Source: a virus
Lineage: Duplodnaviria; Caudoviricetes
Strand: one strand, 5' to 3'
Length of the DNA stretch: 64,000 nucleotides
Virus record (IMG/VR): IMGVR_UViG_3300032007_000037
Span: 1 to 64,000 of that record
How positions within the stretch are numbered: the first letter of the stretch is position 1; every line of letters begins with the position of its first letter. Shown here piece by piece: positions 17,340 through 36,941 of the stretch. Both the position numbers and the translations under genes were made by a program. The notes beneath the pieces were generated by a model. That model had not been told where the DNA came from and did no database searches. It saw only the letters and a list, made by a program, of their open reading frames with translations.

Positions 17340-17661
17340 TTAAAGTAGTACTTCGACTAATAGTGTTTATCTTGTTATAGATAGCTACTTGTGTTGTTGT
17401 TTTATGGCACAAAAATAAACATTTTTATTTAACAAACATTATTTTTATCCTTAAAATGTTTTATGTCTTAACATATTTTAAGATTTCAACCACTTTGTTA
17501 TAAACGTATGATACCTATCTTTATACAAACAATGTAAATATGTACAAAATGGGTACACAATAATCAAAAATAAAAAGGAACAAAAACTCTCCCATCTTCA
17601 CAGACAGGAGAGAAAAATCAAAAATCGTATGAAAAAACAAAATTATATTATGGATAACAAT

Positions 17662-18264
17662 TCACTTTATAATCTCAACATATTTACTACTCTCCCCTTG
17701 TACATAGGGATTCTTTTCTACTACTTCAACGTTTAAAACTTTATGCTTCTTCTGGAACCAGCGCAGTAAAAAGAATTTCTTTGGAGGCTTTACAGTCTCC
17801 TTCTTAGTATATACTACAATGTGCTTCTCACTTGTAAATTCAGGTCTCACCGTGATAGTAGAAGGATACCTTAATCCTAAATCGAGTGAATACCATTTGT
17901 CTCCTAAGAGAGTATCTATTGCCAAGGTTGGGTCTTTAAATATAGTATCATTGATAACAACAGTATCAACAACAGTGAATACAGAACTAACAGCCTGAAG
18001 AGCCTTGAGGTTCTTATCTTTAATTTTCAATTCTTCTCTGGTCTCATTAAGGGCAACAAGGACAGAATCGCTAAAGTATTCAAGTTGATCTACAGTAAGC
18101 TGTAAAGCTGTATTCTTCTTACCACTAGCGGACAACTCTTCACTATATGCCTTAACATTGGCTTCAGAAGTTTTCCACAAATTATTTACATTATCAAGCT
18201 GCTTCCACATGATTGCCAATGCAGCAAATAAAATGGCAATTACAATAAAAAGATACTTTGTCAT
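17662..18264 (-). CDS. Putative Rz-like spanin
   Basis: N-terminal TM helix plus coiled coil, near the lysis genes. Confidence 0.5.
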   Translation of the reverse strand: MTKYLFIVIAILFAALAIMWKQLDNVNNLWKTSEANVKAYSEELSASGKKNTALQLTVDQLEYFSDSVLVALNETREELKIKDKNLKALQAVSSVFTVVDTVVINDTIFKDPTLAIDTLLGDKWYSLDLGLRYPSTITVRPEFTSEKHIVVYTKKETVKPPKKFFLLRWFQKKHKVLNVEVVEKNPYVQGESSKYVEIIK

Positions 18265-18327
18265 ACTCTTTTATTTTTTGCAAAGGTAAAGAGTGCTAAC
18301 AAAGTATCCAACAAGCTAAGGATTTTG

Positions 18328-18678
18328 TTAAGGTTTATAGTTTTCTAGTTCTAACCTATGAAGATGTTTTTCCTTGTTTTTCTTCCTTAGCCAATTGGTG
18401 TATCTGTCAAACACCTTATGTTGAAAGTGAGTGTTTGGTGTAAATTGCATTTCATCTATAGAATTCCATATTTTATTGGCAGACATTTCTGTCATAAAAT
18501 AGTTTTTTTCTTCACTATCACTTATACAACCTGATAGTTCAATCTCACCATTAACAACACGCATATCTAAATTAGCTTCTTCACAAAGCCTTTTAAACCG
18601 TTTTGTCTTCTTTTTATAATAGTAAGAACAAACCTCAGGACTTGAATATCTAATATGATTATCTTCCCTTATTATCAT
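18328..18678 (-). CDS. Hypothetical protein
   Basis: 116-aa ORF overlapping the upstream stop. Confidence 0.55.
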   Translation of the reverse strand: MIIREDNHIRYSSPEVCSYYYKKKTKRFKRLCEEANLDMRVVNGEIELSGCISDSEEKNYFMTEMSANKIWNSIDEMQFTPNTHFQHKVFDRYTNWLRKKNKEKHLHRLELENYKP

Positions 18679-20605
18679 GTTTTGATTTTATATATTGTTG
18701 TGCCCCAATACCAATGGTAAATGGTAAAATTACTGGAGTATATTGTCCAGTCAAAATATTCCAAAAGTTTTTGACTTCTGTTTCATTTCCTGCCTTTACA
18801 TCATCTAAGTAACCATTATATTCTCTAGCTGGATTGATTACATCGTGTGCAGCATTATATCCGGGATATTCTTGAAAAGGTTTTAAACCAATAGCTTTAC
18901 CAGTCTCTAAACCATTTGCTTGTAATTCTCCACGTCTTTTTAAATAAGGTCTAGCGTTTTCATATAAAGCGTTGTTTACTTTTTTTGTGATATAGGCTTC
19001 TGCTTTTTCTCGTTCCAAAAATTTCTCAAATTCGGGCATTTTTGAAAACTCATTAAACCAATAAAACTCTTTTAAGCTATTATTAGGTGCATTGACCCAT
19101 TCTTTATATTCTGTGGATTTGAATGGATATTCTGGTCTACCTACATTTTGCCAATGAATACCTTCATGAAAAATTCCATTTTCTAAATTATCTCCTAACA
19201 CAATTGGATCAATATCTATATTATTTTGTAATCTTTGATATTCTGCTGGACTACTCATAGGTCTCTTTGAAAAAGTATGTGTTACTTTACTTTCAACAGG
19301 CGCAAAAAGATCTTCTCCCCAATCTCCAAATCCTAAAGCACGAGACTCTTCTTGAGCTTTCTTAATTAAATTCTTATATCCCTGACTTTTTTTATACGCA
19401 GCTGCATCTTCTATTGCTCTTGCAATCTTACTAGCTTTAACAAACTGTGAAGTTCCTCCTAAATCAGGTAACAAAGGCTCACTTGCGATAACTCCTGTTA
19501 CTTCACTAGGAGGTGTCATTAGCATTGGAACACTGTTTAAATAATGTTCTGCTGCACTAATTAAATTTGGTAGGCTGGAATTATTCTTAACAATAGATTT
19601 TGCAATATTCTTTTCTCTTTCTCTCCAAGCCTTCTCTCTATCCATTCTAGACATCTTCTGACTTTCCTCAGTAACACCATCATAGATATTTCCTCCTCCA
19701 GCAAACTCATTATACTTCTTCTTAATATCAGAAAGATTGGTAATGCCATTCTCTATAGCAACGCGCATCATTTCAGACTTTTCTACTAAAGACAAATTAT
19801 CCCATGTCTTTTTATTAAGAGAACCTCCTTCACTATGAACAACAAAGTCTGGCTGATTAGTTGAAACAAAATGCGTAGGCTGAGGCTGGTTCTCCCACTT
19901 CATAGATTCATTAAAATGCATTATATCCCCAATCTGAGATATTGCTCTTAATGCATCTATATTAGGTCTTTCGTCTGGAAGAGATACAGCTTCTACATAA
20001 TTATCTGAAGCTATGGGCATAACAACAGGTTTAGGTATTCTGTTATTAGTACCTATCTTATAAGGATTATTAACAAAAACCATATCGGGAAACTCCTTCA
20101 AGTACCCTTCAAAAGAGTTTCTCTTGGGTTTTTCCAATAGTTCTGTTAATCCCCATTCTTGTTCCCTCTTTCTCCTCTTTTCCAATCCTTTCTTGAATTT
20201 AGAATCTTTACTGGTAGCATCCATTTGATACATAGCATCTATAAATCTACCATCTGTCATGGCTTGAAATAGTAGTAGAGAATTCTTAGGAGTAAAATCA
20301 AAATTGTATTTATATGAAAGCATAGCCTTCTGAGAGTGTTCAGGAAGACTGTCCCAATTAGGTATTGTATCCTCAGCCCATTTCTTTCTTTTCTCTAATT
20401 CTTCCCTAACAGCTGTACGATTATCTTCTTTAGACCATTTGTTCCCCCTTTGTCTATAAAGCCTATGCCATTTTGGATCTGTTAGGCCAGACCCTAAAGT
20501 AATCTTTCCATCTCCTATATTTCTTGGCTTTTCTATAAACCCTTCTTCTCTAATTACCCAGTCCAGTAATTCATCATCTACGATTGAACTTTTACTTCTA
20601 CTCAT
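18659..20605 (-). CDS. Protein with N-terminal lysozyme-like (GH24-type) domain, probable virion-associated muramidase
   Basis: REEGF...DGKITLGSG catalytic pattern; LSYKYN; GLEKRRKRE. Confidence 0.65.
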   Translation of the reverse strand: MSRSKSSIVDDELLDWVIREEGFIEKPRNIGDGKITLGSGLTDPKWHRLYRQRGNKWSKEDNRTAVREELEKRKKWAEDTIPNWDSLPEHSQKAMLSYKYNFDFTPKNSLLLFQAMTDGRFIDAMYQMDATSKDSKFKKGLEKRRKREQEWGLTELLEKPKRNSFEGYLKEFPDMVFVNNPYKIGTNNRIPKPVVMPIASDNYVEAVSLPDERPNIDALRAISQIGDIMHFNESMKWENQPQPTHFVSTNQPDFVVHSEGGSLNKKTWDNLSLVEKSEMMRVAIENGITNLSDIKKKYNEFAGGGNIYDGVTEESQKMSRMDREKAWREREKNIAKSIVKNNSSLPNLISAAEHYLNSVPMLMTPPSEVTGVIASEPLLPDLGGTSQFVKASKIARAIEDAAAYKKSQGYKNLIKKAQEESRALGFGDWGEDLFAPVESKVTHTFSKRPMSSPAEYQRLQNNIDIDPIVLGDNLENGIFHEGIHWQNVGRPEYPFKSTEYKEWVNAPNNSLKEFYWFNEFSKMPEFEKFLEREKAEAYITKKVNNALYENARPYLKRRGELQANGLETGKAIGLKPFQEYPGYNAAHDVINPAREYNGYLDDVKAGNETEVKNFWNILTGQYTPVILPFTIGIGAQQYIKSKHDNKGR

Positions 20606-20622
20606 AGCCAGCCATTTTATAT

Positions 20623-20817
20623 CTATTCAATGTCTACATCCTTAAACATTTTCCTTAACCATCTTCTTACTTCCAGTATGCAAAAACAAAGAAGGGCTAT
20701 AGGCCATACAAGACTAACAGTTGTAACCATTTCCTGCGCACATTCTCCATCCTCATCACTGTGTATTGTAAAATAGAAAACAAAAATACCTATAATATAT
20801 ATAATAAAGTATAGCAT
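20623..20817 (-). CDS. Small membrane protein
   Basis: Two hydrophobic segments; ATG just downstream of the promoter at 20836. Confidence 0.5.
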   Translation of the reverse strand: MLYFIIYIIGIFVFYFTIHSDEDGECAQEMVTTVSLVWPIALLCFCILEVRRWLRKMFKDVDIE

Positions 20818-20966
20818 ATTGGTCTTATTTTTATGCAAAGATAATTCTTCTTTGTATAGATGTTCTAAATCTTAGAATAATTGTTAAGTCGACTTTATAC
20901 ATTTTTTAGTTTCGAAAGTGTCAAAAAAGATATAAATATCTTTGTACAGAGAAAAATTAGAATAAA

Positions 20967-21365
20967 ATGACAACGACAATTGTATCAGCTATTGTAGGTT
21001 TAATTTGTACAATAGTATCCAGTAGTGTTACTTTTCTGTGGCAAAAAAAGAAATATAACACAGAAGTAGATTCACAACAAATAAAGAATATTGAAGATTC
21101 TTTTAATGTGTATAAAAAAATGACAGAGAGTAATTTAAACACTCAGAAGGACACCTTCGAAACTATAATATCATCTCTTAATCAAAAAGTAAGCAACTTG
21201 GAAAAAGAGAATGCCTCCTTACGAGAACAAGTTGGACAACTACAGATGGAGATGATCAATGTATTAGGCAGTATTTGCTTAGATGCTACGTGTAAAATGA
21301 GAAAAGTTTCTTTTCCGCCAGCAGTTTCTGCAAAGAAGGGAAAGAATAAAAGTAAGGAGGATTAA
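20967..21365 (+). CDS. Holin-like protein (TM helix + coiled coil)
   Basis: N-terminal TM helix, directly upstream of the endolysin candidate, promoter at 20937. Confidence 0.5.
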   Translation: MTTTIVSAIVGLICTIVSSSVTFLWQKKKYNTEVDSQQIKNIEDSFNVYKKMTESNLNTQKDTFETIISSLNQKVSNLEKENASLREQVGQLQMEMINVLGSICLDATCKMRKVSFPPAVSAKKGKNKSKED

Positions 21366-21367
21366 CC

Positions 21368-21835
21368 ATGAAGCTATTACTAGAAAGAAAATGGAAAAAG
21401 GAAACCTATACTATAGGCAAGCTAAGTGTAGACGGTAAACCTTTTTGCGAAACTTGTGAAGATACAGACAGACACCTTAATCAAAATATGCCTTTAGCGA
21501 AGATTAAGGAAATTAAAATAGCTGCTGTAACTGCAATACCTACTGGAGTATATAATATTAAAATGGACCAGATCAGTCCAAAGTATTCATTAAAACCTTG
21601 GTTTGTTACTAACTGTAACGGTGCAAAGATGCCTAGACTGGAAAATGTACCAGGCTATGCAGGTGTGTTGATCCATCCTGGAAATACAGCCAAAGACTCA
21701 GAAGGATGTATCCTTGTTGGAAGGAACACTGTTGTTGGTATGGTAACAGACTCTAAAAACACATTTCTCAATCTTTATAAACTAATGTATGCGGCTTATA
21801 AGAGAGGTGAGAAAATTACAATCGAAATTAAATAA
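21368..21835 (+). CDS. DUF5675-type putative endolysin (L,D-transpeptidase-like)
   Basis: YTIGKL, TAIPTGVY and GVLIHPGNTAKDSEGCILVG motifs. Confidence 0.75.
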   Translation: MKLLLERKWKKETYTIGKLSVDGKPFCETCEDTDRHLNQNMPLAKIKEIKIAAVTAIPTGVYNIKMDQISPKYSLKPWFVTNCNGAKMPRLENVPGYAGVLIHPGNTAKDSEGCILVGRNTVVGMVTDSKNTFLNLYKLMYAAYKRGEKITIEIK

Positions 21836-21933
21836 AGATAAATTTTTCTTTTCATGATGATAACAGTTTAAGGTTTAAGTTAGTACATGGTTATTTTATG
21901 TATGAAGAAAGGGAGCTGTGAAGCCCCCTTCTT

Positions 21934-22287
21934 CTATATATAAGGTGTAAAATCAAAATCTGGCCTATAGTGCTCTGTAACAGAAATAAAATCAGGAAAT
22001 AGTATTCCATGCTGAGCATAATTACCTAGAGACGTTATGACATACTTCCTGCGTTCCCTCTTATTATAATAACTGTCAAGTATATTGAAAATATATGTAA
22101 TGTCACCAATAGTATGTCCTACCACATTGTAATACACTTTCTCCTGTAGATAATTTTCAACTTCGTCAGATGAATATTTTCTACCAGCAATTGCATAGGC
22201 AAGCTCTATAGTAAAATGCTGACCGTGCTTTTTAATGTATTCTTTTAAACCTTTCATCCATAGTAATACATTGGTTTGACGCTGCAA
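21934..22287 (-). CDS. Hypothetical protein (true start likely a downstream ATG)
   Basis: ORF downstream of the promoter at 22285. Confidence 0.5.
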   Translation of the reverse strand: MQRQTNVLLWMKGLKEYIKKHGQHFTIELAYAIAGRKYSSDEVENYLQEKVYYNVVGHTIGDITYIFNILDSYYNKRERRKYVITSLGNYAQHGILFPDFISVTEHYRPDFDFTPYI

Positions 22288-22361
22288 AGGTAAAAATTAT
22301 TTAAATATAATCAAAATATTACCATAGAAAACCACAATCTGTTGAATTAGAGTAGATTGTA

Positions 22362-22823
22362 TCATTCAGTTTCTGTGATATTTGGATCAACCACGAAATT
22401 CATTAATATCTTGGTTCTTTGAGAAAGACTGCCTTTAAAGAAATAATCGGGATTTAATAAATATTCCCCTCTACACTTCTTTATCAGTAAACCAGATTTA
22501 CAAAGTGTGCTAATATTATTATCAATGCTAGCATCAGAAAGATTTAAACCCTCCTCTCGGCATTGTTCTTTAAAGGAAGCGTTATTGTGAACAATGTTAC
22601 CAAATGCATCGTTTTCTTTGTTATAAGTAGAATGTTTCCAGCAGCACATAAGAATCTTAAGTTGTAATCCTTTAAGCTTGAATAGCTCAGGATAACTACT
22701 AAAGAAGACCATTATAAACTCTTCTAATGACAATTTCCTAGTCTGTTTAAACTCTAATAATTCACCAGTATGATTATCTATCAGTGAATAGTCTTTTGAT
22801 GTTTCTGTAATAAATTTCTTCAT
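22362..22823 (-). CDS. RepL-like winged-helix replication/DNA-binding protein
   Basis: IDNHTGE N-terminus; HTH followed by GEYLLNPDYFFKG, typical of the RepL family. Confidence 0.65.
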   Translation of the reverse strand: MKKFITETSKDYSLIDNHTGELLEFKQTRKLSLEEFIMVFFSSYPELFKLKGLQLKILMCCWKHSTYNKENDAFGNIVHNNASFKEQCREEGLNLSDASIDNNISTLCKSGLLIKKCRGEYLLNPDYFFKGSLSQRTKILMNFVVDPNITETE

Positions 22824-22965
22824 GCCTCTTTAATTTATACCGCAAAGGTATAAAAAGTTTTTTATATGGCAAAGGAAACTAATAAAAAAGATTAGTTAAA
22901 CTGCATCATTTAAGGAGTTGTACTAACTTGATACATTAGTCATAATATAATAAGCATAGTGTTCC

Positions 22966-23028
22966 TCATCTTATGGAGTGAGGAAGTTCACCTTATAAGG
23001 TGAGGAAACCTATCTTATAAGATGAGGA
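22966..23028. repeat. Three 19-bp direct repeats at a 22-bp period (iteron-like)
   Basis: tcatcttatggagtgagga (22966), tcaccttataaggtgagga (22988), ctatcttataagatgagga (23010). Confidence 0.85.
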
Positions 23029-23173
23029 TGAAAACATTTAAAGTATTGTATATCAGACTGATACATAGGTATTTCCTTCTTATCTAGTTAAGCATAATTT
23101 TAATATATGTTATTTTAGATAAAAGCACCCCCGTCACCTTATTATAAATTGGTATTATCCCCCCCCCTTAATC

Positions 23174-23599
23174 TTAAGCTAAAGTCCATAGCAACTCATT
23201 CATTTTATCTTCATTGGATAAATCCTTCCAAGTAAACCGCAGCACTTCAACATAAGGATAATGTTCTTGAATGGTCTTAGTTCTCATCTTATCATGCTGT
23301 TTATGTTCATCATGGAACTTCCCATCCACCTCTATAATAATATCCTTCTCAGGTATGTAAAAATCCGCTATATAATATCTAATGATCCACCCATCATCAG
23401 CATAGATATAAAATATCTTCTGATCCTCATAAGGAATAGAATGGTTATCCAAAAAATCCTTCATTCTTTTTTCCAATGGAGAAGGCCAAGTCCTCATTTC
23501 ATCAGCCCTATATTCTGCTTTATAGATTATCTCCTTATTATGTTCATGTATCCTTTTCATATATTTGTAATTTTCTAAACAAAAATACCATAATACCAA
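23174..23599 (-). CDS. DUF559/Vsr-like PD-(D/E)xK endonuclease (likely start ~23560)
   Basis: YIADFY...IIIEVDGKFH...D..RT...VLRF. Confidence 0.8.
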   Translation of the reverse strand: MVLWYFCLENYKYMKRIHEHNKEIIYKAEYRADEMRTWPSPLEKRMKDFLDNHSIPYEDQKIFYIYADDGWIIRYYIADFYIPEKDIIIEVDGKFHDEHKQHDKMRTKTIQEHYPYVEVLRFTWKDLSNEDKMNELLWTLA

Positions 23600-23898
23600 T
23601 AACCATGAAACAACATAACAATCACAATAACATTCTCTTAGGATAATACATAAAGATTACACGGAACTGTGGTGTGTAGGGATAAAGTATAGTGTATGTA
23701 TAAAGGTGGGGTACATATCCATGAATGGGGGATATGTCTACAAGTCGGTGATAATATACTACACCTCCCCCATGCTTGATTGAATTGGGGTTTATCCCCC
23801 CTGTCAATCACTAAGACAGTAATCCCTGCCAATGCTAACAGGAATTACATCTCTTAGCACTTGGCAGTTGGGAGATTGGCCTCCAACTCCCACCAACA

Positions 23899-26219
23899 AT
23901 GATAACTAAGACCCTCAGCCAAGGACTGAGTACCATCAACAAAGCCATGAGAGAATTAATTCTAGCTCCAGAGATCAGAGAAGAGTTCAAGAAAGACTTT
24001 CCTTCAATAGAACTTGAGAGTGTAGTCAAAAGATTCAAAATAAATGAAGTGCTTGCACCTAGTATTAACCGAAATTTCTGTGAAGACATGGGATGTAACA
24101 TTGAGGACATTCCTGTAATGCTTGAGTACAATGACAAGTGGCTTCAAATGGAAATTGATGATGAGGATGATTGGATGGATATGCAGGAAGCATGGTTAGC
24201 AGATAAACTTGAAGACTGATTACACTCTGATGTTTATGAAAATAATTGTTTAATTTAAATAAATAAAATTATGAAGACTTTAGAAGTATTGGGAATTGTA
24301 TTCATTGCAGTTGTATTACTTGCATGTGGATATTCAATGGGCTATCATCAGAGAAATTCTGAAAGTTATAAGGCAGCATGTATTCTGTCTGATGCTATTA
24401 GAATTGAATATGATACTATTGAAGATGATGAGAAGAATTGTACCTATTCAGCATATTCTGCACTTGAAGAAGGTTGCTGTGAATTAGGTATTGATACTGA
24501 TTCATTATTGAGAGAATATGTTTGGTGTTATTAACCTAAAAAGGAATCATATGAACAAGGAAACTTTACTGGCATTAATGTGTTATGCCCTTGACAGGGA
24601 CTTGCTGTCTCTGCCTGTATCAAGGGTATTACAGCTATTCAAGAATGATGCAGCTGCCTTGAAGAAGACCTATTCAGACCCTGAAGATGAACTGCTCTAC
24701 ATCAAGGGAATAGAGAATGTAGAAGATATTGACTTCTTCACAGACTATGTTCTGTGTTACAGCAAGATGGACTCAATATCGGGATTAAGAGACTATGGTA
24801 AATATAATGAAGAACTGATTAAATATGAAACCAAGAATTAAATCATCAGCTATCTATCATGCAGAGCCTGAGATAGCCAAGAGCTTTATGGCTAAGAGTG
24901 AAGTACTGGAGAATAAGCTCAAGAGTGGAAAGATTACCAAGGAAGAGCTTATGAAACTTGCTGAATATAGGGTTCAGCATTCTATCAAACCAAAGAGAGA
25001 ACAATACTTTGTTCCATGCTTTGGTAAGTTCATCGAGGTTCCAAAAGATATCTATGACAGATATTATGCAAAATAATTATGTGGAGATTAGTTGATAGAT
25101 ATGGAGCAATTGTTGCTAGATGCAGATTCTCCTCTGAAGCAGAAGCCAATAGTTATGCTCATGCTATGGGCAGACCAGATTGGACAGCAAAAGAATTCCA
25201 TAATTCATATTACATGGATTCATGGACAAGCGGTAATAAATCAATCCTTTAAATATTGAAATTATGAAACGTTTTAAAGAAATCTTTAACACTGCGATGG
25301 TTGAAATCACACCTACTGATATTGCCATGTTAGGGAAAGATGTTCCTGTAGTGAGTTTTAATAGTCGAAACTATGCTGATTTTGTATCATGGGCTAATAG
25401 AGCCTTCAGTCCTAATCTAGTATTTAGTCATGCTTACATCTGCCCTGGTAGTTGTGTTGTAGCTAAAATTGATGGAATCTTCAATGAAAAGAGTGCTTCT
25501 ACTCTGAAAGCTAATGGTATCACAGAATGGGCTATCAAAGCTGATGAAGTGTATGGGGAGGATGTGCCTACTGGCTGTCCTGCATTGTTCCTTAATATTC
25601 CGTGCATTCCAGATGAATGAAGAGTGTCTAGTCTTAATACTTAATAGTCTAACCCTTTAAATATTGAGATTATGAAGAAGAATGATGTTTTCACCTTTAC
25701 AGCTCCCAATGGAGTTGAGGTGACAGCTGTAGTTATAGCACAGGTAGAGGTTATATTTGACCCTGAAACCTATTATGAGACTATAGAAGATTGGATTGAC
25801 CTTTGTTATGCTCAAAACAGGTTATTTACTTACTATAGACAAGCAAAGAAGATCAGAGAGGTTTTAGTAGACTATGCTATTCTTCCTGAATATGATTCTA
25901 TGCTTGAAGAGCATCAAAAAGATATTGATATGAAGAATGCTAGTATTATTCAACCTTGGGAAGAGGAATTTGAAAGAGAACTTCAAGGTTGTAATGATTA
26001 AGCAATCTTATTAAATATCTATTAACCTTTTAAGCAAAGAACATTATGGAAGAGAACAAAATGTCTTGGAGCTTTGTAGCTGCTCCAGAAAGAAAGAATC
26101 CTACAAGAGAGGAAGCATTAGCTACAGCAGAGAAATATGGTCTTACAGAGGAAGTCAAATATATGATGGATCTTGGTTTTACACCAACTGAGGCACTTGC
26201 CGAGTGGGACATATTATAA
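23899..26219 (+). CDS. Run of small early hypothetical genes (23899-24219, 24271-24534, 24518-24841, 24825-25076, 25264-25620, 25672-26001, 26046-26219)
   Basis: Tightly packed co-oriented ORFs with A-rich leaders; no recognisable function. Confidence 0.6.
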
Positions 26220-26289
26220 ACATTTCAAACCAAAAGCCAGAAGCTCCTAGAGGCTCTGTAGAAATACAGTTGTAAGTGAGTATTAGAAT

Positions 26290-26568
26290 ATGAATATTTT
26301 TGCAGCATTGAAGAAGTACGGTTCTGAGTATGAACTTAAAGATAAGAGAGATTTTGAAGAGAGTGAGAAAGCTCAAGTGAAATCTGCAAGTGTTGTGTTA
26401 AGCACTTATGGCAAGAGTGTATGCTTCATTATGAAATCTGGTGGGCAGACATATGTACCTGTTTCCAGGGATTCTGTAGTTAATATTGGAGATACAGTTG
26501 ATTTGGATAAGGCTAAAATCCTCACCTTGGAAAAGGATGGAGAGACTATAAATAGAATAGAAATCTAA
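26290..26568 (+). CDS. Small beta-rich protein, paralogue 1 of 3
   Basis: GKSVCFIMKSGGQTY motif shared with 26761 and 27813. Confidence 0.8.
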   Translation: MNIFAALKKYGSEYELKDKRDFEESEKAQVKSASVVLSTYGKSVCFIMKSGGQTYVPVSRDSVVNIGDTVDLDKAKILTLEKDGETINRIEI

Positions 26569-26571
26569 TAA

Positions 26572-26612
26572 TAAGGGCAGATGGCTTCGGCTGTCTGCCT
26601 TTTATTTTTTTT
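26572..26612 (+). terminator. Intrinsic terminator
   Basis: ggcagatggc-ttcg-gctgtctgcc plus T run. Confidence 0.8.
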
Positions 26613-26760
26613 CAGTAGGTGGCAGCAGCAGCAAGAGGTGGAAGCAGCACAGAGGAAGTCCTACCAATTACACTTCCCTTGTCTATGCAATGGAACGTTA
26701 AGCTAGCACCATTGCAGAGACTACAAACAACAAATTACAAACAACAAACAACAAACAACT

Positions 26761-27042
26761 ATGAACATTTTTAAAGGATTGCAGGTGTATGGTGGCTCTT
26801 GGAACGTTAAGGACAGCAGAGCATTTGATGCTGAGGAGATTGAGGCAGTAAAGAGCGCAACCATTGTGTCTTCTGAGTTTGGAAAATCAGTTTGCTTCCT
26901 GATGAAGTCAGGTGGTCAGACCTATATTCCATTGAGTAATCAGTCCAGCCTAGAAGTAGGCGATTCAGTAGACCTTACCAAGGCCAAGGTGCTGACCCTG
27001 CAAAGGGATGGCAATGCAGACATTAACAGAATTGATGCCTGA
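26761..27042 (+). CDS. Small beta-rich protein, paralogue 2 of 3
   Basis: Nearly identical protein to the 27813 copy. Confidence 0.85.
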   Translation: MNIFKGLQVYGGSWNVKDSRAFDAEEIEAVKSATIVSSEFGKSVCFLMKSGGQTYIPLSNQSSLEVGDSVDLTKAKVLTLQRDGNADINRIDA

Positions 27043-27055
27043 GCAGCCAGTTTAT

Positions 27056-27096
27056 AGGGGAGAGTCCGAGAGGATTCTCCTCTCTTTTTTTCTTTT
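27056..27096 (+). terminator. Intrinsic terminator
   Basis: gagagtcc-gaga-ggattctc plus T run. Confidence 0.8.
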
Positions 27097-27812
27097 AGGT
27101 GGTAGTAGTAATAACCTCTCACTACTCCCAGCATCTATCCTTCCTCCTCACTACTGCCAACCCCCTATTCCCTAGTAACAACCCCTTCTCCCAACAACTG
27201 CCATACCTTATTATATATAGGAGGATTGGGAAGAAGGGGCAGTAGGGATTAATACTTTTAACATTTACATATTATTAAGTAGTGATATTAATAACTATTT
27301 CATATATTATATGTTAATGAATACTACTAATTTATGTATAATTTGGTAGTTTTGTTCCTTCATAACTTATTGATTATCAATGACATATGCAGGAATGAAG
27401 GACTATTTTTCCCTCCACACTTTTTAACCCTTTTTCTACTACCTCAAAAACACCAAGATAATATGAATATGGCACTCTTTACTGATTATTAACACTTCTC
27501 AATCCCTATAATTAGCAATTCAACATCTATTTTATCCTTATTTTTCTCCAATCATTAACAAATAAAATGCATTTTTCCTCCTCTATATTACAATTAATGA
27601 GTATAATTGAATATATCTTATACAATTATCTCTATCTTTTTTCTGATAAGACGCATAGAGAACAACCTACAAATTACACTTCCCATGTATTTGACTGAGA
27701 TATAGTGATTCATTAGTAATCACATCTTAGTTGTACAACAAACAATCACACAACAAACAGCAACTCGGTGTGCCAGATACCAAAATAAATCCTAAGGGCA
27801 TAGGTGTATTAT

Positions 27813-28094
27813 GTGAATATCTTTAAAGGTTTACAAGTTTACGGAGGTAGTTGGAATGTAAAGGACTCTCGTTCTTTTGATCAGGAGGAAATTGATGCGG
27901 TTAAGTCTGCTCAGATTGTTTCTTCTGAGTTTGGTAAGTCTGTGTGCTTTATCATGAAGAGTGGCGGTTCTACTTATATTCCTCTTTCCAATGATTCTAA
28001 CCTGGAAGTTGGGGATAATGTGGACTTGACTACTGCCAAGGTTCTCACTCTTCAGAGGGATGGGAATGCGGATATTAATCGTATTCAGGCATAG
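27813..28094 (+). CDS. Small beta-rich protein, paralogue 3 of 3 (GTG start)
   Basis: GTG AAT ATC TTT AAA aligns with MNIFK; terminator at ~28104-28146. Confidence 0.75.
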   Translation: MNIFKGLQVYGGSWNVKDSRSFDQEEIDAVKSAQIVSSEFGKSVCFIMKSGGSTYIPLSNDSNLEVGDNVDLTTAKVLTLQRDGNADINRIQA

Positions 28095-28291
28095 TAGTCT
28101 TTTGAAGGGCAACAGTCGAAACAGACTGTTGTCTCTTCTTTTTTTATTTAAAGATGTGAGTAACAACTAATACTGTTTTATAATGCACCGATTATCAGAC
28201 GACAAAGCTACAAAAATGGCTATAGTCTTCATTGTTATAGCTATTGTTCTTGGTATATATTTACAAATAAGGCTAATTACACAATAATATT

Positions 28292-31013
28292 ATGGAAGAA
28301 TTAAAGCCCATTAGACCTATAGGAGAGGTTTATGCGTATTCAGGTGCAAAGCCTCTTTGTAGCTTGGGGTTACAAGGGTCTTCATCAGATTATGGGATTG
28401 TGCTTTCTGTAGCATATAATCCTGATAGGGTATATACAGAATTTCAGATAGTGGATAATTGGTTAGCCTATCATCTGAAGAGAAATGTGCTGCTTTCTAC
28501 CAGTAACTATGATGAGGTTATCAAATGGTGTGAAGAGCATCATGATGAGATAATACAACAATGTAGGGATAATCTGGAGAAATTCAAAAACCGATACAAT
28601 TGACAACAATAACCCTTTACAGCAATGACAATACAGTTTAGATACAAAAATATTGGAGATATTAGAATCCAGTCTGTACGTGCATTTAATATGGATGTAA
28701 GTAAGAAGGTTTGCCGGGTTTCTACATTTCCCAACTATCATGTAGATGGTAGTTCCATATTGAAAGAAGACATTGACAAGCTTAACAGATACCAACCACA
28801 GGATGAGATGCGGTTTAGTGAAGTTGAAAATATAATGATTACACAATGATACACAAGCTATATCTTATTACAATAGATTCTCTTGAAGATGAGACCCATT
28901 ATTTTGTCAGTAGGGAGGGATCTACGGCTAACTTCAGTACAGATGTTACTGAGGCTAAGCTATTTAGCGATAAAAGCAAGGTGGAATCTATGTGTACCAC
29001 ACTCAATATAGGATGTGATATTGTATGCAAGATTGTCACTATGGTTAATAAATCGGATATAATGAAAGTCATTATTGAATAATGAAAATGCATATAGTTG
29101 TGTCGTTTGGGGAGGTGGTGGAGATTAATACTTCATCTCTCCAAATAGATACAGAAGAAGATAAAGGGGATTACAGAGTATGGAAAGACAAGAAATGGTA
29201 CAAGTTCTGTAAAGACCACAACTTTCATCCTATTAAAGATGCATACGGTAGGATATATCAACTCTATTTACAATTATGTGCTGAAGGTATAATATAGATA
29301 GCAACAGTATGGAAAAGATGGGTTTAAAGAGGCTTTTATGCCCAGAAAGGGAAATAAATAAGGAATTCGATCCTGATGCAATAACATATAGAATATATGA
29401 GATGAATTCTGTACAGGCTCATTTGGATATCCCTCATGGGATGTCAGCAAGAGCTTGGAGGAGAAAGCAAGAGAGGGATAGAAAGAAAGGAAAGAATAGA
29501 ATATGAAATTTGCATATTATCCTTCACCAGGCAAGGCATTGTTTAATAGCATTTTGCTGTCAGTTTTATTGCCATTTAAATAAAGGGAATTATTATGAAA
29601 ATCATTAAGCAATTATCCGAAGATGAATTTGTTGTTAAAATGTCAGAACAGGATTTATACAACGATAAGAGTATAATAGTAGCGCATGATTATGTTAATT
29701 TTATCCGTACAATGATGCTAAGCACTGACCCTTCAGTTAAAAGACCGTTATATGGTAAATATGCATTTTGTGCCAACTGTATTAATGTAAGAATGGCTGT
29801 ACAATTTCCTATAAGAGATATGGTAAAGTTTGTTTTGCCGTTCCTAAAAAAACATCCCTATTGTACTGAAGAACATATTGGAAATAACTATCATGGGGAA
29901 AGTATAATTTATTTTACTGATCCAATAGATAAGGTTTGCAAAGTTGCTATTAGAGGAAAATTGGACGATGCCCCTACTATATTGACACAAAAAATGTTTT
30001 CCGACATAAAGGAAATGGGAACACAAGAAAATAACAAGTAACATGACTGATTTATCAATGATATCAACTGAGGATTTAAGAGCCGAATTAAGGCGTAGGT
30101 CTATTCAGAAAATGAAAGAGACTAAAGCTAAAAAGAAAGCTCTTAAACCAGAAGAAAAATATATAGAGATACATGGCAAAGCATTGACTACCTCATATAT
30201 AAGCCGACCTTGGTATCTTACTAGATTCAGGGTAGAACTGGATAAGGAGGAATATTGTCAATATGTTAAGAGGGAAGCCAAAGATTGGGAGAGAAAAAAT
30301 TATTTCAAATGTGATCGAAGATTTATTAAATATAATAACAGGCCTCAGGAAGGTGATTTAGTAACTCTTCGTATCCATTTTAATAAATTTAAACTCTATC
30401 AACCTTTTGATCCTTTTCATACCAAGATAATAAAAGTAGAAAAAGCTGATTATGAGATGGAAAAACTATAAACCTGGAGATAGAATCTTCTATAAAGCTT
30501 ATGATGGCGAGATACATTCTGATATAGTTCTTAAAGTAGAAGAGCTTACCTATGAAGAGAATGGTTGTGGTCAGCCTTATACTGTACACTATCAAGAACT
30601 CTATGTATCTGAACTCATGGTGATAGAGAACTATAATTGTCTTCCTCAGAACTCTCCTGAAGTTAAAGAGCTATTGAAGAAATACAAAAGCTATGATAAG
30701 ATAAAAGAGAAGCTTGTTCCTGATATACTTGATAAATTATCTCTTTTCAGTAAGAATATACAAAGGGAATTTGTTTCAGAATTAATAGCCAAATTTGGCC
30801 TATCTCCATCAGAATTCTAATCTAATTAAATTATTTATACCGTTTGATATAATAACTGCCTAATATACTTTTGCATTATGTTACAGAAAAGATATCAAAG
30901 ATATTCAAAAGAGGGTATAACTTGGACTCAGTGGTTCAACATATCTTCAAGTACAGAAAAAGAGCCGTGGCAAGTTAAAGGAAAGCTCAGGAATGAGTAC
31001 AGGGAAATAAACT
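28292..31013 (+). CDS. Run of small early hypothetical genes (28292, 28625, 28846, 29082, 29309, 29595, 30043, 30452, 30878)
   Basis: Co-oriented, closely spaced or overlapping ORFs. Confidence 0.6.
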
Positions 31014-31113
31014 AAACGGACTAAATATGGGAGGGAAGAACAGTCCTTTTTACCGTTGCTTGCGGGATGTGCTTTTCATATTAATAATCCTCTGTCTGCC
31101 TCCCCTCCCACCT

Positions 31114-31184
31114 TGGGATATAGTATAGCGGCAATACGTTGGGTTTTGGTCCCAAAGTTATAGGTTCGACTCCTGTTATCCCAA
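31114..31184 (+). tRNA. tRNA-Gln(TTG)
   Basis: Acceptor tgggata/tatccca; anticodon arm ttggg-TTTTGGT-cccaa; GGTTCGACTCC. Confidence 0.85.
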
Positions 31185-31308
31185 CTCAGTACAGTATAAC
31201 ATATCATCCATTGCGTGTGCTCATTAAAGGTATTACTATTTCGCTACTGTACTGATTATATTCATATTCTAAAAGTCCCTGCCCGCTTGTGATAAGTAGG
31301 CAGGTTAT

Positions 31309-31381
31309 CTCTGCTTAGCTCAGTTGGTAGAGCACTACACTTTTAATGTAGGAGTCGATGGTTCAAGTCCATCAGCAGAGA
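31309..31381 (+). tRNA. tRNA-Lys(TTT)
   Basis: Acceptor ctctgct/agcagag; ctaca-CTTTTAA-tgtag; GGTTCAAGTCC. Confidence 0.9.
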
Positions 31382-31387
31382 CTACAT

Positions 31388-31473
31388 CTTTCTCTAGCTC
31401 AATTGGATAGAGCGCAGCACTTATAAATAATAGTTGGATGCTGAGGTTCCAAGTTCGAATCTTGGGAGGAAGA
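31388..31473 (+). ncRNA. tRNA-like RNA (Arg-type body) with a 19-nt anticodon loop
   Basis: Normal acceptor, D and T arms; cagca-[cttataaataatagttgga]-tgctg. Confidence 0.7.
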
Positions 31474-31547
31474 CTTTAGATTGGTGAATTGCCATTGGTT
31501 AATTTATTATTGTTGTTATTGAATTATCTTACAGCGGTAAGAGGAAT

Positions 31548-32137
31548 GCCTACTTAGCTCAGCTGGTAGAGCAACAGTTTTCTATGAAAATTAAATGCTA
31601 TGGCGAGAAATCTCATAGTAGAATCTCCCTAATTCGGTGGAAGTCCTTTGTATAATATTCAGATGGGGGAAGCCCATACAGCTAATCAATAATGCTGAAG
31701 AACAATACCGAGCTAAATTGGGAAAGAAAGTAGTGGGAGCTTAAGCAACTATGGATTTTCATTATGAACTGTTAAGTTCGTAAATAATGATTATCACGCT
31801 TTTTCATAAATGCTGATTATATAGGAGATACCTAAGTTGAAATTTGTTACAAAGCAGAGATATACTGTTATATATGAGATACTATCCTCGTTAGAGAATG
31901 TTCCCTCAAAAGGTAAAATACCTGTAACATCTTGCAAGAATTTCAATATGGTAAAAATAGTCCAGACTATAAATGAATAATAGAGTGAGCTGTCACGGCT
32001 GCTATCCTGATATAAAGATAGTAACAAATGTGTAGAGACTGATTAGTTTCAGACTACTCCGGTGAATATTATTCATGCTATGGTAATACAAAGTAGTAGA
32101 AAACTGTAGGTCACAGGTTCGAGACCTGTAGTAGGTA
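31548..32137 (+). tRNA. tRNA (Thr-like body) interrupted in the anticodon loop by a ~517-nt group I intron-like insert
   Basis: 5' half gcctacttagctcagctggtagagcaacagt (31548-31578); 3' half actgtaggtcacaggttcgagacctgtagtaggta (32103-32137). Confidence 0.8.
31583..32099 (+). mobile_element. Group I intron-like RNA, no homing ORF
   Basis: P aattcggtggaa (31631), Q aataccgagc (31704), P3 atctcc/ggagat, P7 gattat (31815)/atagtc (31957), R-like gtgtagagact (32030). Confidence 0.7.
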
Positions 32138-32160
32138 CGGATGGAGAAATGAAGGAAAGA

Positions 32161-32282
32161 GATACATTAGCACAACTGGATAGTGACCCAGACCTTAAAT
32201 CACTGTTCTTAACAGGGTCTTGCATGTTGTCGACAGTAGCAAGAGGTGCTGGGAGTTACAGGTTCGAATCCTGCATGTATCT
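32161..32282 (+). ncRNA. tRNA-like RNA with a branched ~57-nt domain replacing the anticodon loop
   Basis: Acceptor gatacat/atgtatc; D loop aactggata; cccag/ctggg stem; GGTTCGAATCC. Confidence 0.7.
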
Positions 32283-32287
32283 CTGAT

Positions 32288-32368
32288 GGAGAAATGGTGG
32301 AAAGGTAGACACGTCAGATCTAAGCTCTGATACCGTAAGGTGTGTGGGTTCGAATCCCACTTTCCCCA
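32288..32368 (+). tRNA. tRNA-Leu(TAA) with atypical C33
   Basis: tcaga-TCTAAGC-tctga; long variable arm; GGTTCGAATCC. Confidence 0.75.
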
Positions 32369-32465
32369 CAAAGGAGGTATTGCATAGGAGATAAGACCAT
32401 CAAAAGCAAGTCCGCAGAGAGGGCATCCATCCGAGCCAGGTATTATGCTTACCTCCTTTTTTAAA

Positions 32466-32544
32466 ATCTGTATGGTGGAATGGAAGACACGTTAGTTTAA
32501 GAAACTAATGCTTATGCGTGCAGGTTCAAGTCCTGCTACAGACA
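32466..32544 (+). tRNA. tRNA-Leu(AAG)
   Basis: ttagt-TTAAGAA-actaa; Leu-type D arm and variable arm; GGTTCAAGTCC. Confidence 0.75.
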
Positions 32545-32654
32545 CTATTGTAGGTTATTTATGATTAGGTGATTATAATACTTTATTCATGGGACTACTA
32601 GTCAGTGATGATAGGTAGTCCTCTTTTTATTATTAACATTTAATTTTTACTGTC

Positions 32655-34530
32655 ATGGAATTCAAAGTAGGAGATAAAGTAAGACTTAAACAAGATTTAA
32701 TAGCAGGTCAAACATATGATGGCCTCACTTTACTGGCTCCAATGTACTTTTCAGATGTAAGAACAATATCTGCAATCTCAACAAATGGAAATTATTGGCT
32801 TACAGAAGACCCCAGGGGTTTTTGTTATGCAGCAAAAATGCTTGAATACGCTCCTACTTACGAGTGTGGGGATATAGTTAAATTGTCAAGGCCTGAAGAA
32901 TTACCATGTGATTACAGATATGGAATCAGTCCTATAAGAATAGATAATGGCGAAACTCTATTTGTAATTAAGGAAGTAAGAAAAAATGGACTTACAGCAG
33001 CCAGATCTGGAGAAGATGGATATGATTATAGATTATGCCGTATAAATGATACTGGAACAGTACTTGATATAGAGTTAAGAAGGATGTATTGGCTTTCATC
33101 AGGACTTAAATTATTTTCAAAACGCTTGCAATATGACTTCAGTATAGAACCTTGTCCTTCTCCTCTTACAAAGACTGATTTAGAAGCACCTTCTGAAAAG
33201 ACAAAAGGGGATTTAGGTTCTCGTGGGAATAAACTTGAATTATCTGTGCATAAGAAAGAGAGAAAACCCATCTTTAATTTTAAGAACTAATGGCTAGATA
33301 TAGAATAGGAGATAAGGTCTTAATTAAAAAAGACTTGGTCAATAGAAGATATTACGGAAATATCGTGTATTTAAACGCAATGTATATTAAAGGGCCTGTT
33401 ACCATAAGAGAAGTCCACTCTTCTAAGTACTATTTTATATATGAAAAAAAGTCATATCTGTATTCAGAAGATATGTTTGAACCTTATACTGCCCTTAATA
33501 TATTTCCTTTGCCCGAACAAATCAATAAAAGTATTCTAACTAAGATAAAAGAATATCTTTTCAGTTCCAAATCCAAGAAAACAATTCCTCTTATTCTTAA
33601 TGTAAATAAGCATAAACGTAAAATATTATTTAACTTTAGTGAATATGGGTAAATATAAAATTGGGGATAAAGTACTTATTAGAAAAGGTTTAAAACCTGA
33701 TGAACATTATGGAGAAGATTATGTTCTATATATTAATAAAATGTACATAGAAGGTCCCGTTACTATAAAATCTTTATCCTGTTTTAACAATAGTTATTAC
33801 ATTCTAGAATGTCCTGAACATTGGCTTTATGCAGAAGAAATGCTCATGCCGTTTGAATCAGAGAGTCCTGTAGTAGAACTTAATAGAACCGATCTTTCTG
33901 TAAAAGCCGCTTCGCGTCTTGATAATGTTCTCACTGATGTGCTGGGAATAGATGATAGGGCCAGTGTCAGTCAAGTAAGCCATGTTCCTTATAAAAGTAT
34001 TGACAGAGAAGCTGAAAAGACAGAAGAAGAAGAGACATCCTATTTAGATTATTTGGAAAAGAATGCTCCCACTTTACAACTACATATAAAAAGTAAGCAG
34101 AAAGTGCAACTTAACTTTAAATAATATGGAATCGCAATTTAAAAAGGGGGATATTGTAACAATTCTTCCTATAGAAAACATTCCTCAAGAATATGTGGAA
34201 ATTTGCAAAACTCCAGCCAGAGAGAAGTATGCAAAACGTTTAGCAATTATAGATGATGTGCAATGGAATTGTTCTCCTGACAAGTTTATAGATGGCTATG
34301 GCTATCGTCTAATTGTTTTGATGGATAATCAAACTATAGAACTATGGCGCAGTGTACTATCTGTAGGATTAGTTAAATATGCTAATGCTTCTGATATCTC
34401 TATAGACTATAAGGCATACCCATTACAAGGCATTTCAGCATTAAATAGTATTAAACAAATAAACAATAAAGAAAAGCTTGTATTACAAGTAAATAAAAAC
34501 AAATCAAAACTTAAGTTTAATTTTAATTAA
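32655..34530 (+). CDS. Four tandem paralogues (32655-33290, 33290-33652, 33639-34124, 34126-34530) with KOW/SH3-like N-termini
   Basis: Shared (F/Y)K.GD.V N-terminus and basic ...(F/L)NF C-terminus. Confidence 0.7.
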
Positions 34531-34538
34531 AAAACAGT

Positions 34539-34841
34539 ATGAAAAGAATTGTAGCAGCTTTCCAGAACAAGCTGGAAGCAATGAAGGCAGAGAGAAATGT
34601 TAAGCGTGTCTATCGTGCAATGGAGACAGCATCTGACAATGCAAAGGATAAGATTGAGGAGTTGGAAGGTCAGATGGCTGACTTAGTAGAGACTCTGCCC
34701 ACCTGTACAGATTTCAATGGCTTTATTCAGAAGTTGTCAGACCTGATTGAGGAGAAGGAGACCCAGCAGGTTGTTGTTGACCGTCTTGCTGCCATTGAGA
34801 AGTACCTCTCTGAGGATGTAAAGGTACAGGAGACCAAATAA
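34539..34841 (+). CDS. Coiled-coil hypothetical protein
   Basis: 100 aa with high-expression codon usage. Confidence 0.7.
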   Translation: MKRIVAAFQNKLEAMKAERNVKRVYRAMETASDNAKDKIEELEGQMADLVETLPTCTDFNGFIQKLSDLIEEKETQQVVVDRLAAIEKYLSEDVKVQETK

Positions 34842-35306
34842 GCCCAAAATGGGATAATTAGTTTTTTCATAGTTTTTAAATTTCCCCCTATCCGTCTGTG
34901 AAGATAGATAGGGTTTTTATAAGTATTCAATTTACACATTTTTTCATATAAAGGCAGCACTTTTACATAGCGATGTAAGAATCTTTGAACTTTTTCTTTT
35001 AAAGTTATTCGTATTTTTAATTCTTTACAATTCTATTAAGTGCCGCCCCATATAAAGAGTAACTATTTATGTACAATAGGTTTATATAAACACCTCCTTT
35101 CCAAAATTTCACTATTAGTACATGAATGTTACTCTGCCTAAAGAGAGTGAGGCTTGATACCGAGGATGCAGCTGAGGCAAGCATTATAAAGTAGAGATAT
35201 AACCGCTCGAAGCCACTCTGTTTTTCTTTAAATCAGGTGATGAAGTTATCATTTAAATAAGCTGAGAGAGGTTACTTAATAGTTTACTCAAAGCAGCCTG
35301 ATATTT

Positions 35307-35490: not shown

Positions 35491-35629
35491 GGAATTGATT
35501 GGTGGAACACTGAATCAAGAGAAGTACAGTGGAACAATGGCTCAGCAATCCTGTCTCTCTAAAAGTTCTCTTGAGCTGAAGGGACTGTATAGGTCTTATA
35601 GGAGAGTTCGATTCTCTCCACTTCCACCA
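35491..35629 (+). ncRNA. tRNA-like RNA with encoded ACCA end and no anticodon loop
   Basis: ggaattg/cacttcc-ACCA; T arm gagag-ttcgatt-ctctc; tacagt/actgta stem enclosing ~53 nt. Confidence 0.55.
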
Positions 35630-36839: not shown

Positions 36840-36941
36840 GGCAGAATGTGCGAATGGTATAGCAGTATTACTTTCACTCGATAGTAATATGGGATAAGAT
36901 TCTAGGAATTATCTATGGAGGTTCGAGTCCTTCTTCTGCCA
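36840..36941 (+). ncRNA. Class II (Leu-like) tRNA body with enlarged anticodon arm
   Basis: Acceptor ggcagaa/ttctgcc; tattact-[ttcactcgat]-agtaata; long variable arm. Confidence 0.65.

Follow-up and report, generated by a model that had tools for sequence, protein, structure and literature searches.

Four of five hairpins in the genome of a 131-kb crAss-like phage are terminators that close phage transcription units, and the U-rich sequence ahead of them, predicted to be unpaired, carries a CAU box resembling the start of the FopS small RNAs of Bacteroides. We favour, at about even confidence, the reading that these are real terminators with FopS-like variant 3' tails that are probably regulatory. 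The window analysed was a stretch of 64,000 nucleotides (positions 1 to 64,000 of the virus record).

Terminator hairpins and their upstream boxes

All five hairpins of the original prediction were found; folded by themselves, they have energies of −10 to −17 kcal/mol. Four of them have the predicted GUGA loop; the minimum-energy fold of the fifth, at 31278-31304, has a 3-nt UGA loop within GUGAU. Whole-module folding z-scores were approximately −3 at 17.6, 32.6 and 34.9 kb, and −1.8 at 21.9 kb. Intrinsic (Rho-independent) terminators were defined by a stable GC-containing hairpin with a U tract at once after it, downstream of a co-directional gene or RNA gene. These features were present at 17587-17612(-), 21909-21930 (both strands), 32591-32622 and 34886-34913, which terminate gene 17662-18264, gene 21368-21835, the tRNA array ending at 32545 and the block 32655-34841, respectively. 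The first hairpin was recovered by the terminator scan and by our own scan (−15.9 kcal/mol). The second is bidirectional and also terminates the convergent gene 21934-22287(-). Other terminators in the same genome also have UUCG and GAGA loops. Hairpin 31278-31304 is not a terminator because it has no U tail, tRNA-Lys being directly next to it, and its RNA would come free only through tRNA processing. A parallel was seen in a crAss001-like phage, where a box and the identical hairpin tip lie between two tRNAs, likewise without a U tail.

Table 1. Coordinates of the modules and related elements in the window
Feature	Position	Strand	Context	Parts
Module m17	17575-17661	minus	3' untranslated tail of gene 17662-18264(-)	11-nt CAU box 17628-17638; unpaired U-rich spacer; hairpin 17587-17612 (GUGA loop); U tail 17579-17586
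Module m21	21836-21940	plus	tail of gene 21368-21835(+)	resemblance to FopS seed 21849-21875; 33-nt spacer; hairpin 21909-21930
Spacer element	31256-31304	plus	between tRNA-Gln (31114-31185) and tRNA-Lys (31309-31382)	AUUCAU; hairpin 31278-31304; no U tail
Module m32	32546-32632	plus	trailer after tRNA-Leu (32466-32545), closes tRNA array	U/G-rich trailer ending UUCAU; hairpin 32591-32622; U tail
Module m34	34842-34922	plus	tail of gene 34539-34841(+), final gene of block 32655-34841	11-nt CAU box 34861-34871; hairpin 34886-34913 (GUGA loop, 1x1 internal loop); U tail 34914-34918
Second U6-CAU box	34939-34947	plus	26 nt past the m34 terminator	perfect U6-CAU

The proposed design, an anti-start stretch followed by a GUGA hairpin, is real and recurrent; as free-standing sRNA genes the elements were not borne out, the hairpins being primarily terminators of upstream genes or tRNAs. 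Nor do they form one homogeneous family: the copies at 17.6 and 34.9 kb are clearly paralogous, those at 21.9 and 32.6 kb are looser, and the one at 31.3 kb is without a terminator tail.

CAT was confirmed in U-rich sequence on the same strand upstream of each hairpin, at 17629-17631(-), 21853-21855, 31263-31265, 32588-32590 and 34868-34870, although the boxes at 31258 and 32588 are weaker, with only (A/U)UUCAU. In m17 and m34 the CAU box (11 nt) and the hairpin tip (12 nt) are identical; the spacer and lower stem differ, the lower stem in a compensating way. The complement of this box reads as a start codon and then two Lys codons. The 11-mer occurs three times in the 131-kb genome, 15-16 nt before the tip-identical hairpins in m17 and m34, and at 75253-75263 within a coding region. 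Box and spacer are unpaired in the centroid folds of 17575-17661(-) and 34842-34922(+), with the hairpin and U tail at the 3' end. The m21 tip has 8 nt in common with that of m17 and m34, and the m32 tip differs from it by a swapped, compensated loop-closing pair.

TTCAT was found within 60 nt upstream of five of the six GUGA hairpins of the genome vs one of 16 other clear terminators (Fisher p = 0.0013), a comparison suggested in the original prediction, the within-genome counts being post hoc and small. TTTTCAT preceded three of the six, against a background of 1.3% per 60 nt. Viral-contig terminators were retrieved by hairpin tip and T tail only, and 10 of the 44 distinct ones had TTTTCAT within 75 nt upstream; for 42 7-mers of the same composition at the same 44 terminators the median was 1 and the best unrelated count 3. 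The association between GUGA hairpin and upstream CAU box is not due to chance. At 33-73 nt, the untranslated stretch ahead of these hairpins is exceptionally long; it is also U-rich and predicted to be unpaired. Most other terminators in the genome lie right against the stop codon. No CAU box precedes the sixth GUGA terminator (64610-64639), and no more good copies were found in the rest of the genome (64-131 kb). Three further anti-ATG tracts that had been listed, at 31071, 31489 and 36952, are not followed by such a hairpin and were regarded as background.

The hairpin tip and the FopS models

The tip, a class defined in this analysis, consists of an inner stem GUCU/AGAU around the GUGA loop (GUCU-GUGA-AGAU). 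It is exact at 17.6 and 34.9 kb. Bacteroidota and their phages have it in both sRNAs and terminators, and it is also present in Rfam BTnc201. A search of viral contigs gave 67 matches, essentially all of them hairpins whose lower stems covary (95.9% paired; covariation 0.603 vs 0.14 when shuffled and <=0.146 when slid). In the same context approximately 64 hairpins had the GUGA loop and 16 had any of six other GNRA loops; judged by these counts, the tip is sequence-specific far beyond loop stability. Among the 80 genome matches listed, approximately 39 were hairpins in Bacteroidota vs 3 elsewhere. Graded intermediates exist in viral contigs, two of them directly after tRNAs. No conserved Bacteroidota terminator tip and no crAss-phage sRNAs were found described in a literature search. 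CAT as the start of a long gene on the opposite strand was considered and rejected; long ORFs in the same direction lie ahead of most hairpins with this tip, and the antisense ORFs are short.

FopS (Rfam RF04319) is an experimentally characterised, paralogous family of Bacteroides sRNAs that pairs beside susC start codons and blocks translation, and FopS sequence has already been mentioned from phages (PMC11697453). The protein-binding 3' hairpin of the original prediction finds no support, since the FopS partner RbpB crosslinks to the single-stranded 5' part of FopS and not to its 3' hairpin (PMC11697453). The Rfam FopS model gave no match in the window at its gathering score (curated threshold, 56 bits), and none even at E <= 10 in 9 kb around 17.6 and 34.9 kb; positive controls (Bacteroides, Parabacteroides and phage BX-TP2) scored 62.8-78.9 bits, the FopS gene of the Bacteroides phage BX-TP2 reaching 78.9 bits. 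When loci were collected by the tip alone, bona fide FopS genes scoring 62.8-76.8 bits were among them. The GibS model had no match in the window.

With our own covariance model (R1, bacterial members only) the four terminator modules were the top four window matches: m34 was best (35.4 bits, most of it from the hairpin), and m32 and m21 scored 23.3 and 19 bits. The 31.3-kb spacer hairpin was not among them, and R1 gave no match at the second U6-CAU box, which has only a weak AU-rich hairpin after it. The R1 matches were rejected as seed homology; tip-bearing terminators without a box score 28-42 bits. At 17.6 and 34.9 kb, agreement with the FopS seed R1' (consensus positions 1-21) goes no further than approximately its first 11 positions. 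A seed-only HMM had no significant match in the genome and none at either of these loci; its best relevant match, in m21, ranked third in the genome at E = 13, or approximately 0.02 if restricted to tails before GUGA hairpins. By these comparisons the window copies are not FopS members, because the Rfam model misses them, the R1 matches are hairpin-driven and the seed similarity is short.

No convincing promoter of their own was found at the window modules. An exact −7 box (TAnnTTTG) lies at 17641-17648, only 6 nt ahead of the CAU, so that the U-run would be lost; there is no −7 box match ahead of 34861, and ahead of 21849 seven of the eight positions match. Near-identity search of 17-37 kb against GenBank phages gave no match. 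Relatives of gene 17662-18264 (25-60% protein identity) have no module, the next gene following directly after the stop codon, and no relatives of gene 34539-34841 were found in viral contigs. R1 had no match in five related crAss-like genomes (97-104 kb).

Candidate targets and rival explanations

Because their build matches that of FopS/GibS-type sRNAs, we propose that the tails act like FopS. The unpaired box at the 3' ends of the phage transcripts would pair across the start-codon region of host mRNAs that encode exported proteins and so hinder initiation, either while still attached or once freed as discrete RNAs that might accumulate after mRNA decay or tRNA-adjacent RNase P/Z cuts. In one Bacteroides genome, which may differ from that of the phage host, 11 of 12 exact box complements are ORF starts. 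Approximately 10 of the 12 products have a signal-peptide-like N-terminus, including one SusC-like receptor and one SusD-like protein. Taken by itself, the 11-nt box is not specific: each host genome has 10-20 perfect sites, only modestly more than the reversed control gives.

The hairpins could be plain terminators only, with the CAU boxes as passengers, relics of host sRNA genes or recombined terminator cassettes without a role in trans; we hold this to be a real possibility, if a somewhat unlikely one. The pattern of box and tip kept and the rest different would then go back to the host family and not to selection in the phage. Host sRNA-like units with their own −7 box do exist for each phage copy, locus L142 having up to 13 nt in common with the box region of m34 and L122 10 nt with m17; these also count in favour of the regulatory reading. 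The passenger reading is also consistent with a hairpin that explains all of the R1 signal, with copies that fail the Rfam FopS model and have a short seed, and with the lack of conservation in distant relatives and of phage targets. Against it, UUUUCAU is enriched ahead of tip-bearing terminators in many unrelated viral contigs, the box is unpaired and similarly spaced in both m17 and m34, and the GUGA terminators have the long U-rich tails that most others lack. Regulation of the phage's own translation, by pairing of the tails with start regions of their own operon or of other phage genes, appears improbable. The mean duplex energy of m17 was slightly better with phage start windows than with random windows (−10.4 vs −8.3 kcal/mol), but when the tails were searched for duplexes with 185 start regions, no energy stood out from those of random windows. 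At −19 to −24 kcal/mol, the best duplexes fell close to the 1% tail of the random set, which is what 185 trials should give, and the module's own operon was absent among them. The box complement stands at the start of no phage gene, and only 8 of the 185 called genes begin with ATGAAAA. The predicted start-region silencers keep the architecture of FopS, a relative of the GibS that had been cited, but have no convincing phage target.

The opposite-strand ATGs might also start real micro-ORFs, with the hairpin as a 5' leader structure. From 17629(+) the frame stays open for 35 codons and from 34870(-) for 47; each begins with MKK and has a hydrophobic stretch, as a signal peptide does. Both frames, however, run across gene 3' ends on the opposite strand, and matching ORFs in family members vary in length between 11 and 58 codons; in modules located after a tRNA (viral locus L006 and 32.6 kb in the window) the frame would enter the tRNA. 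On that strand the hairpin is without a terminator tail and no promoter is evident. In FopS loci, sORFs were excluded by the authors (PMC11697453). Micro-ORFs are considered highly improbable.

Regulatory FopS-like tails, if accepted, allow a broader proposal, which we put forward as speculative and on balance unlikely. CrAss-like and other Bacteroidota phages would carry stripped-down FopS-type mimics on mRNA 3' ends and in tRNA arrays, to be released by host tRNA-processing or decay enzymes; the box would stop translation of host exported and outer-membrane proteins (e.g. SusC-like transporters) during infection, and the invariant tip would dock a Bacteroidota RNA-binding or processing factor. 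In gut Bacteroides, the machinery for polysaccharide uptake is under the control of FopS sRNAs. Should working mimics be present in abundant gut phages, infection could reprogram the synthesis of nutrient transporters and surface proteins, some of which may be phage receptors, by RNA alone. If the tails are inert, a GUGA hairpin with an upstream CAT in these phages is to be read as a terminator and not as an sRNA gene. The analysis further singles out a sequence-specific hairpin tip that Bacteroidota sRNAs and terminators have in common with the terminators of their phages. With it such RNAs could be traced easily in metagenomes and a possible RNA-binding partner sought.

Comparison with known systems

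The window modules share with FopS an unpaired U-rich 5' part opening with a near-identical U-run and CAU, a Rho-independent terminator with a GUGA(A) loop (in FopS often with the same 12-nt tip), and several copies per genome; one B. thetaiotaomicron FopS member is 3'UTR-derived. Unlike FopS, m17 and m34 are without the rest of the 21-nt seed and have a gap of 15-16 nt from CAU to stem vs approximately 30 in FopS. In most FopS members a sigma-ABfr promoter (−7 box TAnnTTTG) lies a few nt ahead of the seed, whereas no canonical promoter is evident for the window copies, which are attached to mRNAs or tRNA precursors. GibS of B. thetaiotaomicron (Rfam RF04182) is approximately 145 nt long, with two seeds, internal hairpins and a special promoter (PMC7366714). 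Likeness to it lies in the single-stranded 5' seed for translation initiation regions and the terminator at the 3' end (PMC7366714).

Ordinary terminators with GNRA or UUCG tetraloops have the same GC-rich stem, tetraloop, U tract and place after genes; the GUGA terminators of the window differ from them in their sequence-specific tip and long unpaired U-rich tails. The 3'ETS-leuZ of E. coli, an sRNA from the 3' external transcribed spacer of a tRNA precursor, is an Hfq-dependent sponge of other sRNAs. To our knowledge Bacteroidota are without Hfq and ProQ. Unlike 3'ETS-leuZ, any RNA here would act where Hfq is absent, and its release from the tRNA precursor is predicted; like 3'ETS-leuZ, the elements at 32546-32632 and in viral locus L006 lie between a tRNA and the terminator of the tRNA operon.

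The hairpins and their genomic setting

The IMG/VR virus record, of which the window forms the first 64 kb, is 131,166 bp with direct terminal repeats and about 34% G+C. Genes for a major head protein and for a large terminase lie in the window. Since relatives of gene 17662-18264 (25-60% identity) were found in viral contigs mostly 90-104 kb long, and Kehishuvirus (crAss001-like) phages of Bacteroides intestinalis carry an element resembling the 17.6-kb module, the source was treated as a putative large crAss-like phage of Bacteroidota. The 17.6-kb module was absent from distant relatives. The minus strand carries the genes as far as about 23.8 kb and the plus strand those from there to about 50 kb, with the tRNA region at 31.1-36.9 kb.

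All five predicted GUGA-loop hairpins were found, the 17.6-kb one by a consensus scan and the others by a genome-wide scan of our own that used folding energies. The elements are primarily terminators. U-rich tails of 33-73 nt occur at GUGA terminators; most other terminators in the genome abut the stop codon. The 21.9-kb hairpin has U-rich tails on both strands and was therefore read as a bidirectional terminator; the 31.3-kb hairpin was ruled out as a terminator for want of a U tract. No further good module copy was present in the remainder of the 131-kb genome, and a search of five related complete crAss-like genomes with R1, a covariance model built here from 17 members (bacterial only), returned zero matches.

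Coordinates of the hairpins and of other features noted in the genome
Feature	Coordinates	Strand	Position and remarks
17.6-kb hairpin	17587-17612	minus	49 nt past stop of gene 17662-18264
21.9-kb hairpin	21909-21930		73 nt past gene 21368-21835; 4 nt past convergent gene 21934-22287
31.3-kb spacer hairpin	31278-31304		tRNA-Gln on one side, tRNA-Lys on the other; U tract absent
32.6-kb hairpin	32591-32622		45 nt past last tRNA of the array
34.9-kb hairpin	34886-34913		44 nt past final gene of block 32655-34841
Sixth GUGA terminator	64610-64639		Beyond the window
Second perfect U6-CAU box	34939-34947		26 nt past 34.9-kb terminator, in a 390-nt gene-free stretch ahead of tRNA-Arg; only a weak AU-rich hairpin downstream
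Unusual tRNA-like genes	31388-31473, 31552-32137, 36840-36941, 35581-35629		
Reverse transcriptase, 449 aa	52432-53781	minus	phrog_1423, E 1e-28; tail-like genes adjoin; may belong to a diversity-generating retroelement

The tRNA array is closed by the 32.6-kb module, two tRNAs flank the 31.3-kb hairpin, and at the retrieved locus L006 the module begins 12 nt downstream of tRNA-Arg. In PhiCrAssBcn9 (crAss001-like; L249:1184-1264, OQ221544.1) the space separating tRNA-Arg from tRNA-Glu holds a U-run-CAU box and a hairpin that has the same 12-nt tip and no U tail, a stretch matched in 23 PhiCrAssBcn genomes. These positions suggest a putative release of the modules by tRNA processing. The unusual tRNA-like genes of the window include two tRNA matches, scoring 54.5 and 38.3 bits, in which the anticodon region is enlarged, tRNA halves separated by about 500 nt of inserted sequence, and a tRNA-like acceptor/T-arm with encoded CCA that partially matches the tmRNA model.

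Association of the box with a sequence-specific tip

The original prediction, that a U-rich anti-start-codon CAU stretch (the box) accompanies the GUGA hairpins, was borne out by counts in the genome and by enrichment in viral contigs. Of the 6 GUGA hairpins of this genome, 5 had TTCAT in the 60 nt ahead of them; of its 16 other clear terminators, 1 did (post hoc p = 0.0013). The 11-mer GUUUUUUCAUA occurred three times when both strands of the 131 kb were searched. Two copies stand 15-16 nt upstream of hairpins with the identical 12-nt tip GUCUGUGAAGAU, differing in spacer and lower stem, each lower stem being self-complementary; the third is within a coding region.

Viral contigs were searched using the 14-nt tip and a T run as the only query, with flanks unconstrained, and essentially all of the 67 matches had complementary flanks. 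The six lower pairs were 95.9% paired with abundant double changes (42 distinct sequences), and the covariation score of these stems was 0.603 vs 0.14 for shuffles and <=0.146 for slid partners. TTTTCAT was present in 10 of 44 distinct upstream regions; across the same regions, 42 7-mers of the same composition gave a median of 1, the best unrelated one reaching 3. Most of these hairpins sit behind long co-directional ORFs.

The tip (inner stem GUCU/AGAU around the GUGA loop) is sequence-specific. In the same context, six alternative GNRA loops together produced 33 matches, just 16 of them hairpins, vs about 64 hairpins with GUGA alone; the GUGA tip was about 24 times commoner than their mean. 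A prokaryote search using one genome per species yielded about 39 Bacteroidota hairpins among the 80 matches listed (Bacteroides, Parabacteroides, Prevotella, Muribaculaceae, Dysgonomonadaceae and others), with only 3 tip hairpins outside Bacteroidota among those matches. Rfam BTnc201 has the same tip in its 5' hairpin. Across viral and genome loci L013-L160 the tip, flanked by a tandem G-U pair, occurs on many otherwise unrelated Bacteroidota and phage terminators. A different conserved unit ending in the same tip is repeated across Prevotella genomes (L086, L092, L097, L100, L106, L107, L135, L154); its conserved leader of roughly 45 nt has a -7-like box, with UCAUUUUCC immediately before the stem, and the unit in L092 was not matched by the Rfam model of the Bacteroides sRNA family FopS.

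Targets, family membership and alternative readings

Box and spacer were unpaired in centroid folds. Exact box complements numbered 11-22 per genome in four Bacteroidales genomes (60 in total vs 32 for the reversed control). In one of these genomes 11 of 12 were ORF starts, about 10 of the 12 products having a signal-peptide-like N-terminus; thus the box is a generic mirror of signal-peptide gene starts. Products at the box complements of that genome include a pectate lyase, a SusC-like receptor, a SusD-like protein, thioredoxin-like proteins, DPP-IV and an M23 peptidase. The box points to no specific target. Self-regulation of the phage by its tails is improbable, as the box complement opens no phage gene and module duplex energies against 185 phage start windows all fell within the random tail. 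Micro-ORFs read antisense from the CAT likewise carry little weight, such ORFs at the viral tip loci being short and inconsistent in length.

The Rfam FopS model gave zero matches at E <= 10 at the 17.6- and 34.9-kb loci, the two best, and by the family's own test the window modules are not FopS. The four terminator modules were the top R1 matches in the window (35.4, 32.5, 23.3 and 19.0 bits), the 31.3-kb hairpin not being among them. Tip-bearing terminators without a CAU box scored 28-42 bits, so R1 matches reflect the hairpin class and were rejected as a seed signal. A seed-only HMM found nothing significant across the genome: 21849-21875 ranked third at E = 13 (about 0.02 if the search is confined to tails ahead of GUGA hairpins), and the 17.6- and 34.9-kb boxes, too short, were not registered. 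An exact -7 box occurs only at the 17.6-kb copy, at a spacing too short for the U-run to be part of a transcript. That the modules are plain terminators and their boxes passengers, a reading favoured by these scores and opposed by the box enrichment in viral contigs, is possible but on the doubtful side. That the modules are FopS-like regulatory tails is predicted with roughly even confidence. The proposal of translational silencers is partly supported by its closeness to the published FopS mechanism, and is weakened by the elements being terminators first and by the failed FopS match.

Relation to FopS

The window copies appear tied to FopS by a graded series, viral contigs holding near-canonical forms, shortened forms and forms down to the window type. 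The near-canonical viral L005 scored 44.6 bits with Rfam and 50.8 bits with R1, and L061 is identical to the 17.6-kb copy over the CAU and next seven bases. Among bacterial units that carry a -7 box of their own, L142 has 13 nt in common with the box region of the 34.9-kb module, and L122 has 10 nt in common with that of the 17.6-kb module. At L122, a box-plus-tip unit is preceded at a distance of about 90 nt by a DUF2693-FD RNA (L122:2278-2326, Bacteroides rodentium, 71.5 bits) with a tRNA nearby, and the surroundings may be a prophage-type neighbourhood.

Among the bacterial tip matches, a unit of roughly 70 nt is present in many copies in Parabacteroides and Bacteroides, ordered as -7 promoter box, U-run with CAU, conserved unpaired stretch, hairpin and U tail; Rfam identified these units as BTncRNA_FopS (RF04319; 62.8-76.8 bits, threshold 56). 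BX-TP2, an isolated, induced Bacteroides xylanisolvens phage, has a bona fide copy of FopS in a stretch left unannotated (L250, PQ571285.1 44785-44851; 78.9 bits vs threshold 56). In B. thetaiotaomicron, FopS comprises 14 copies encoding sRNAs of 65-70 nt, built of a single-stranded 5' seed and a Rho-independent terminator; one member is 3'UTR-derived, and the authors remarked on a FopS sequence in one phage (PMC11697453). Seed pairing adjoins a susC-type start codon and blocks translation in vitro, as compensatory mutations support, and RbpB crosslinks to the 5' part of FopS and counteracts repression (PMC11697453).
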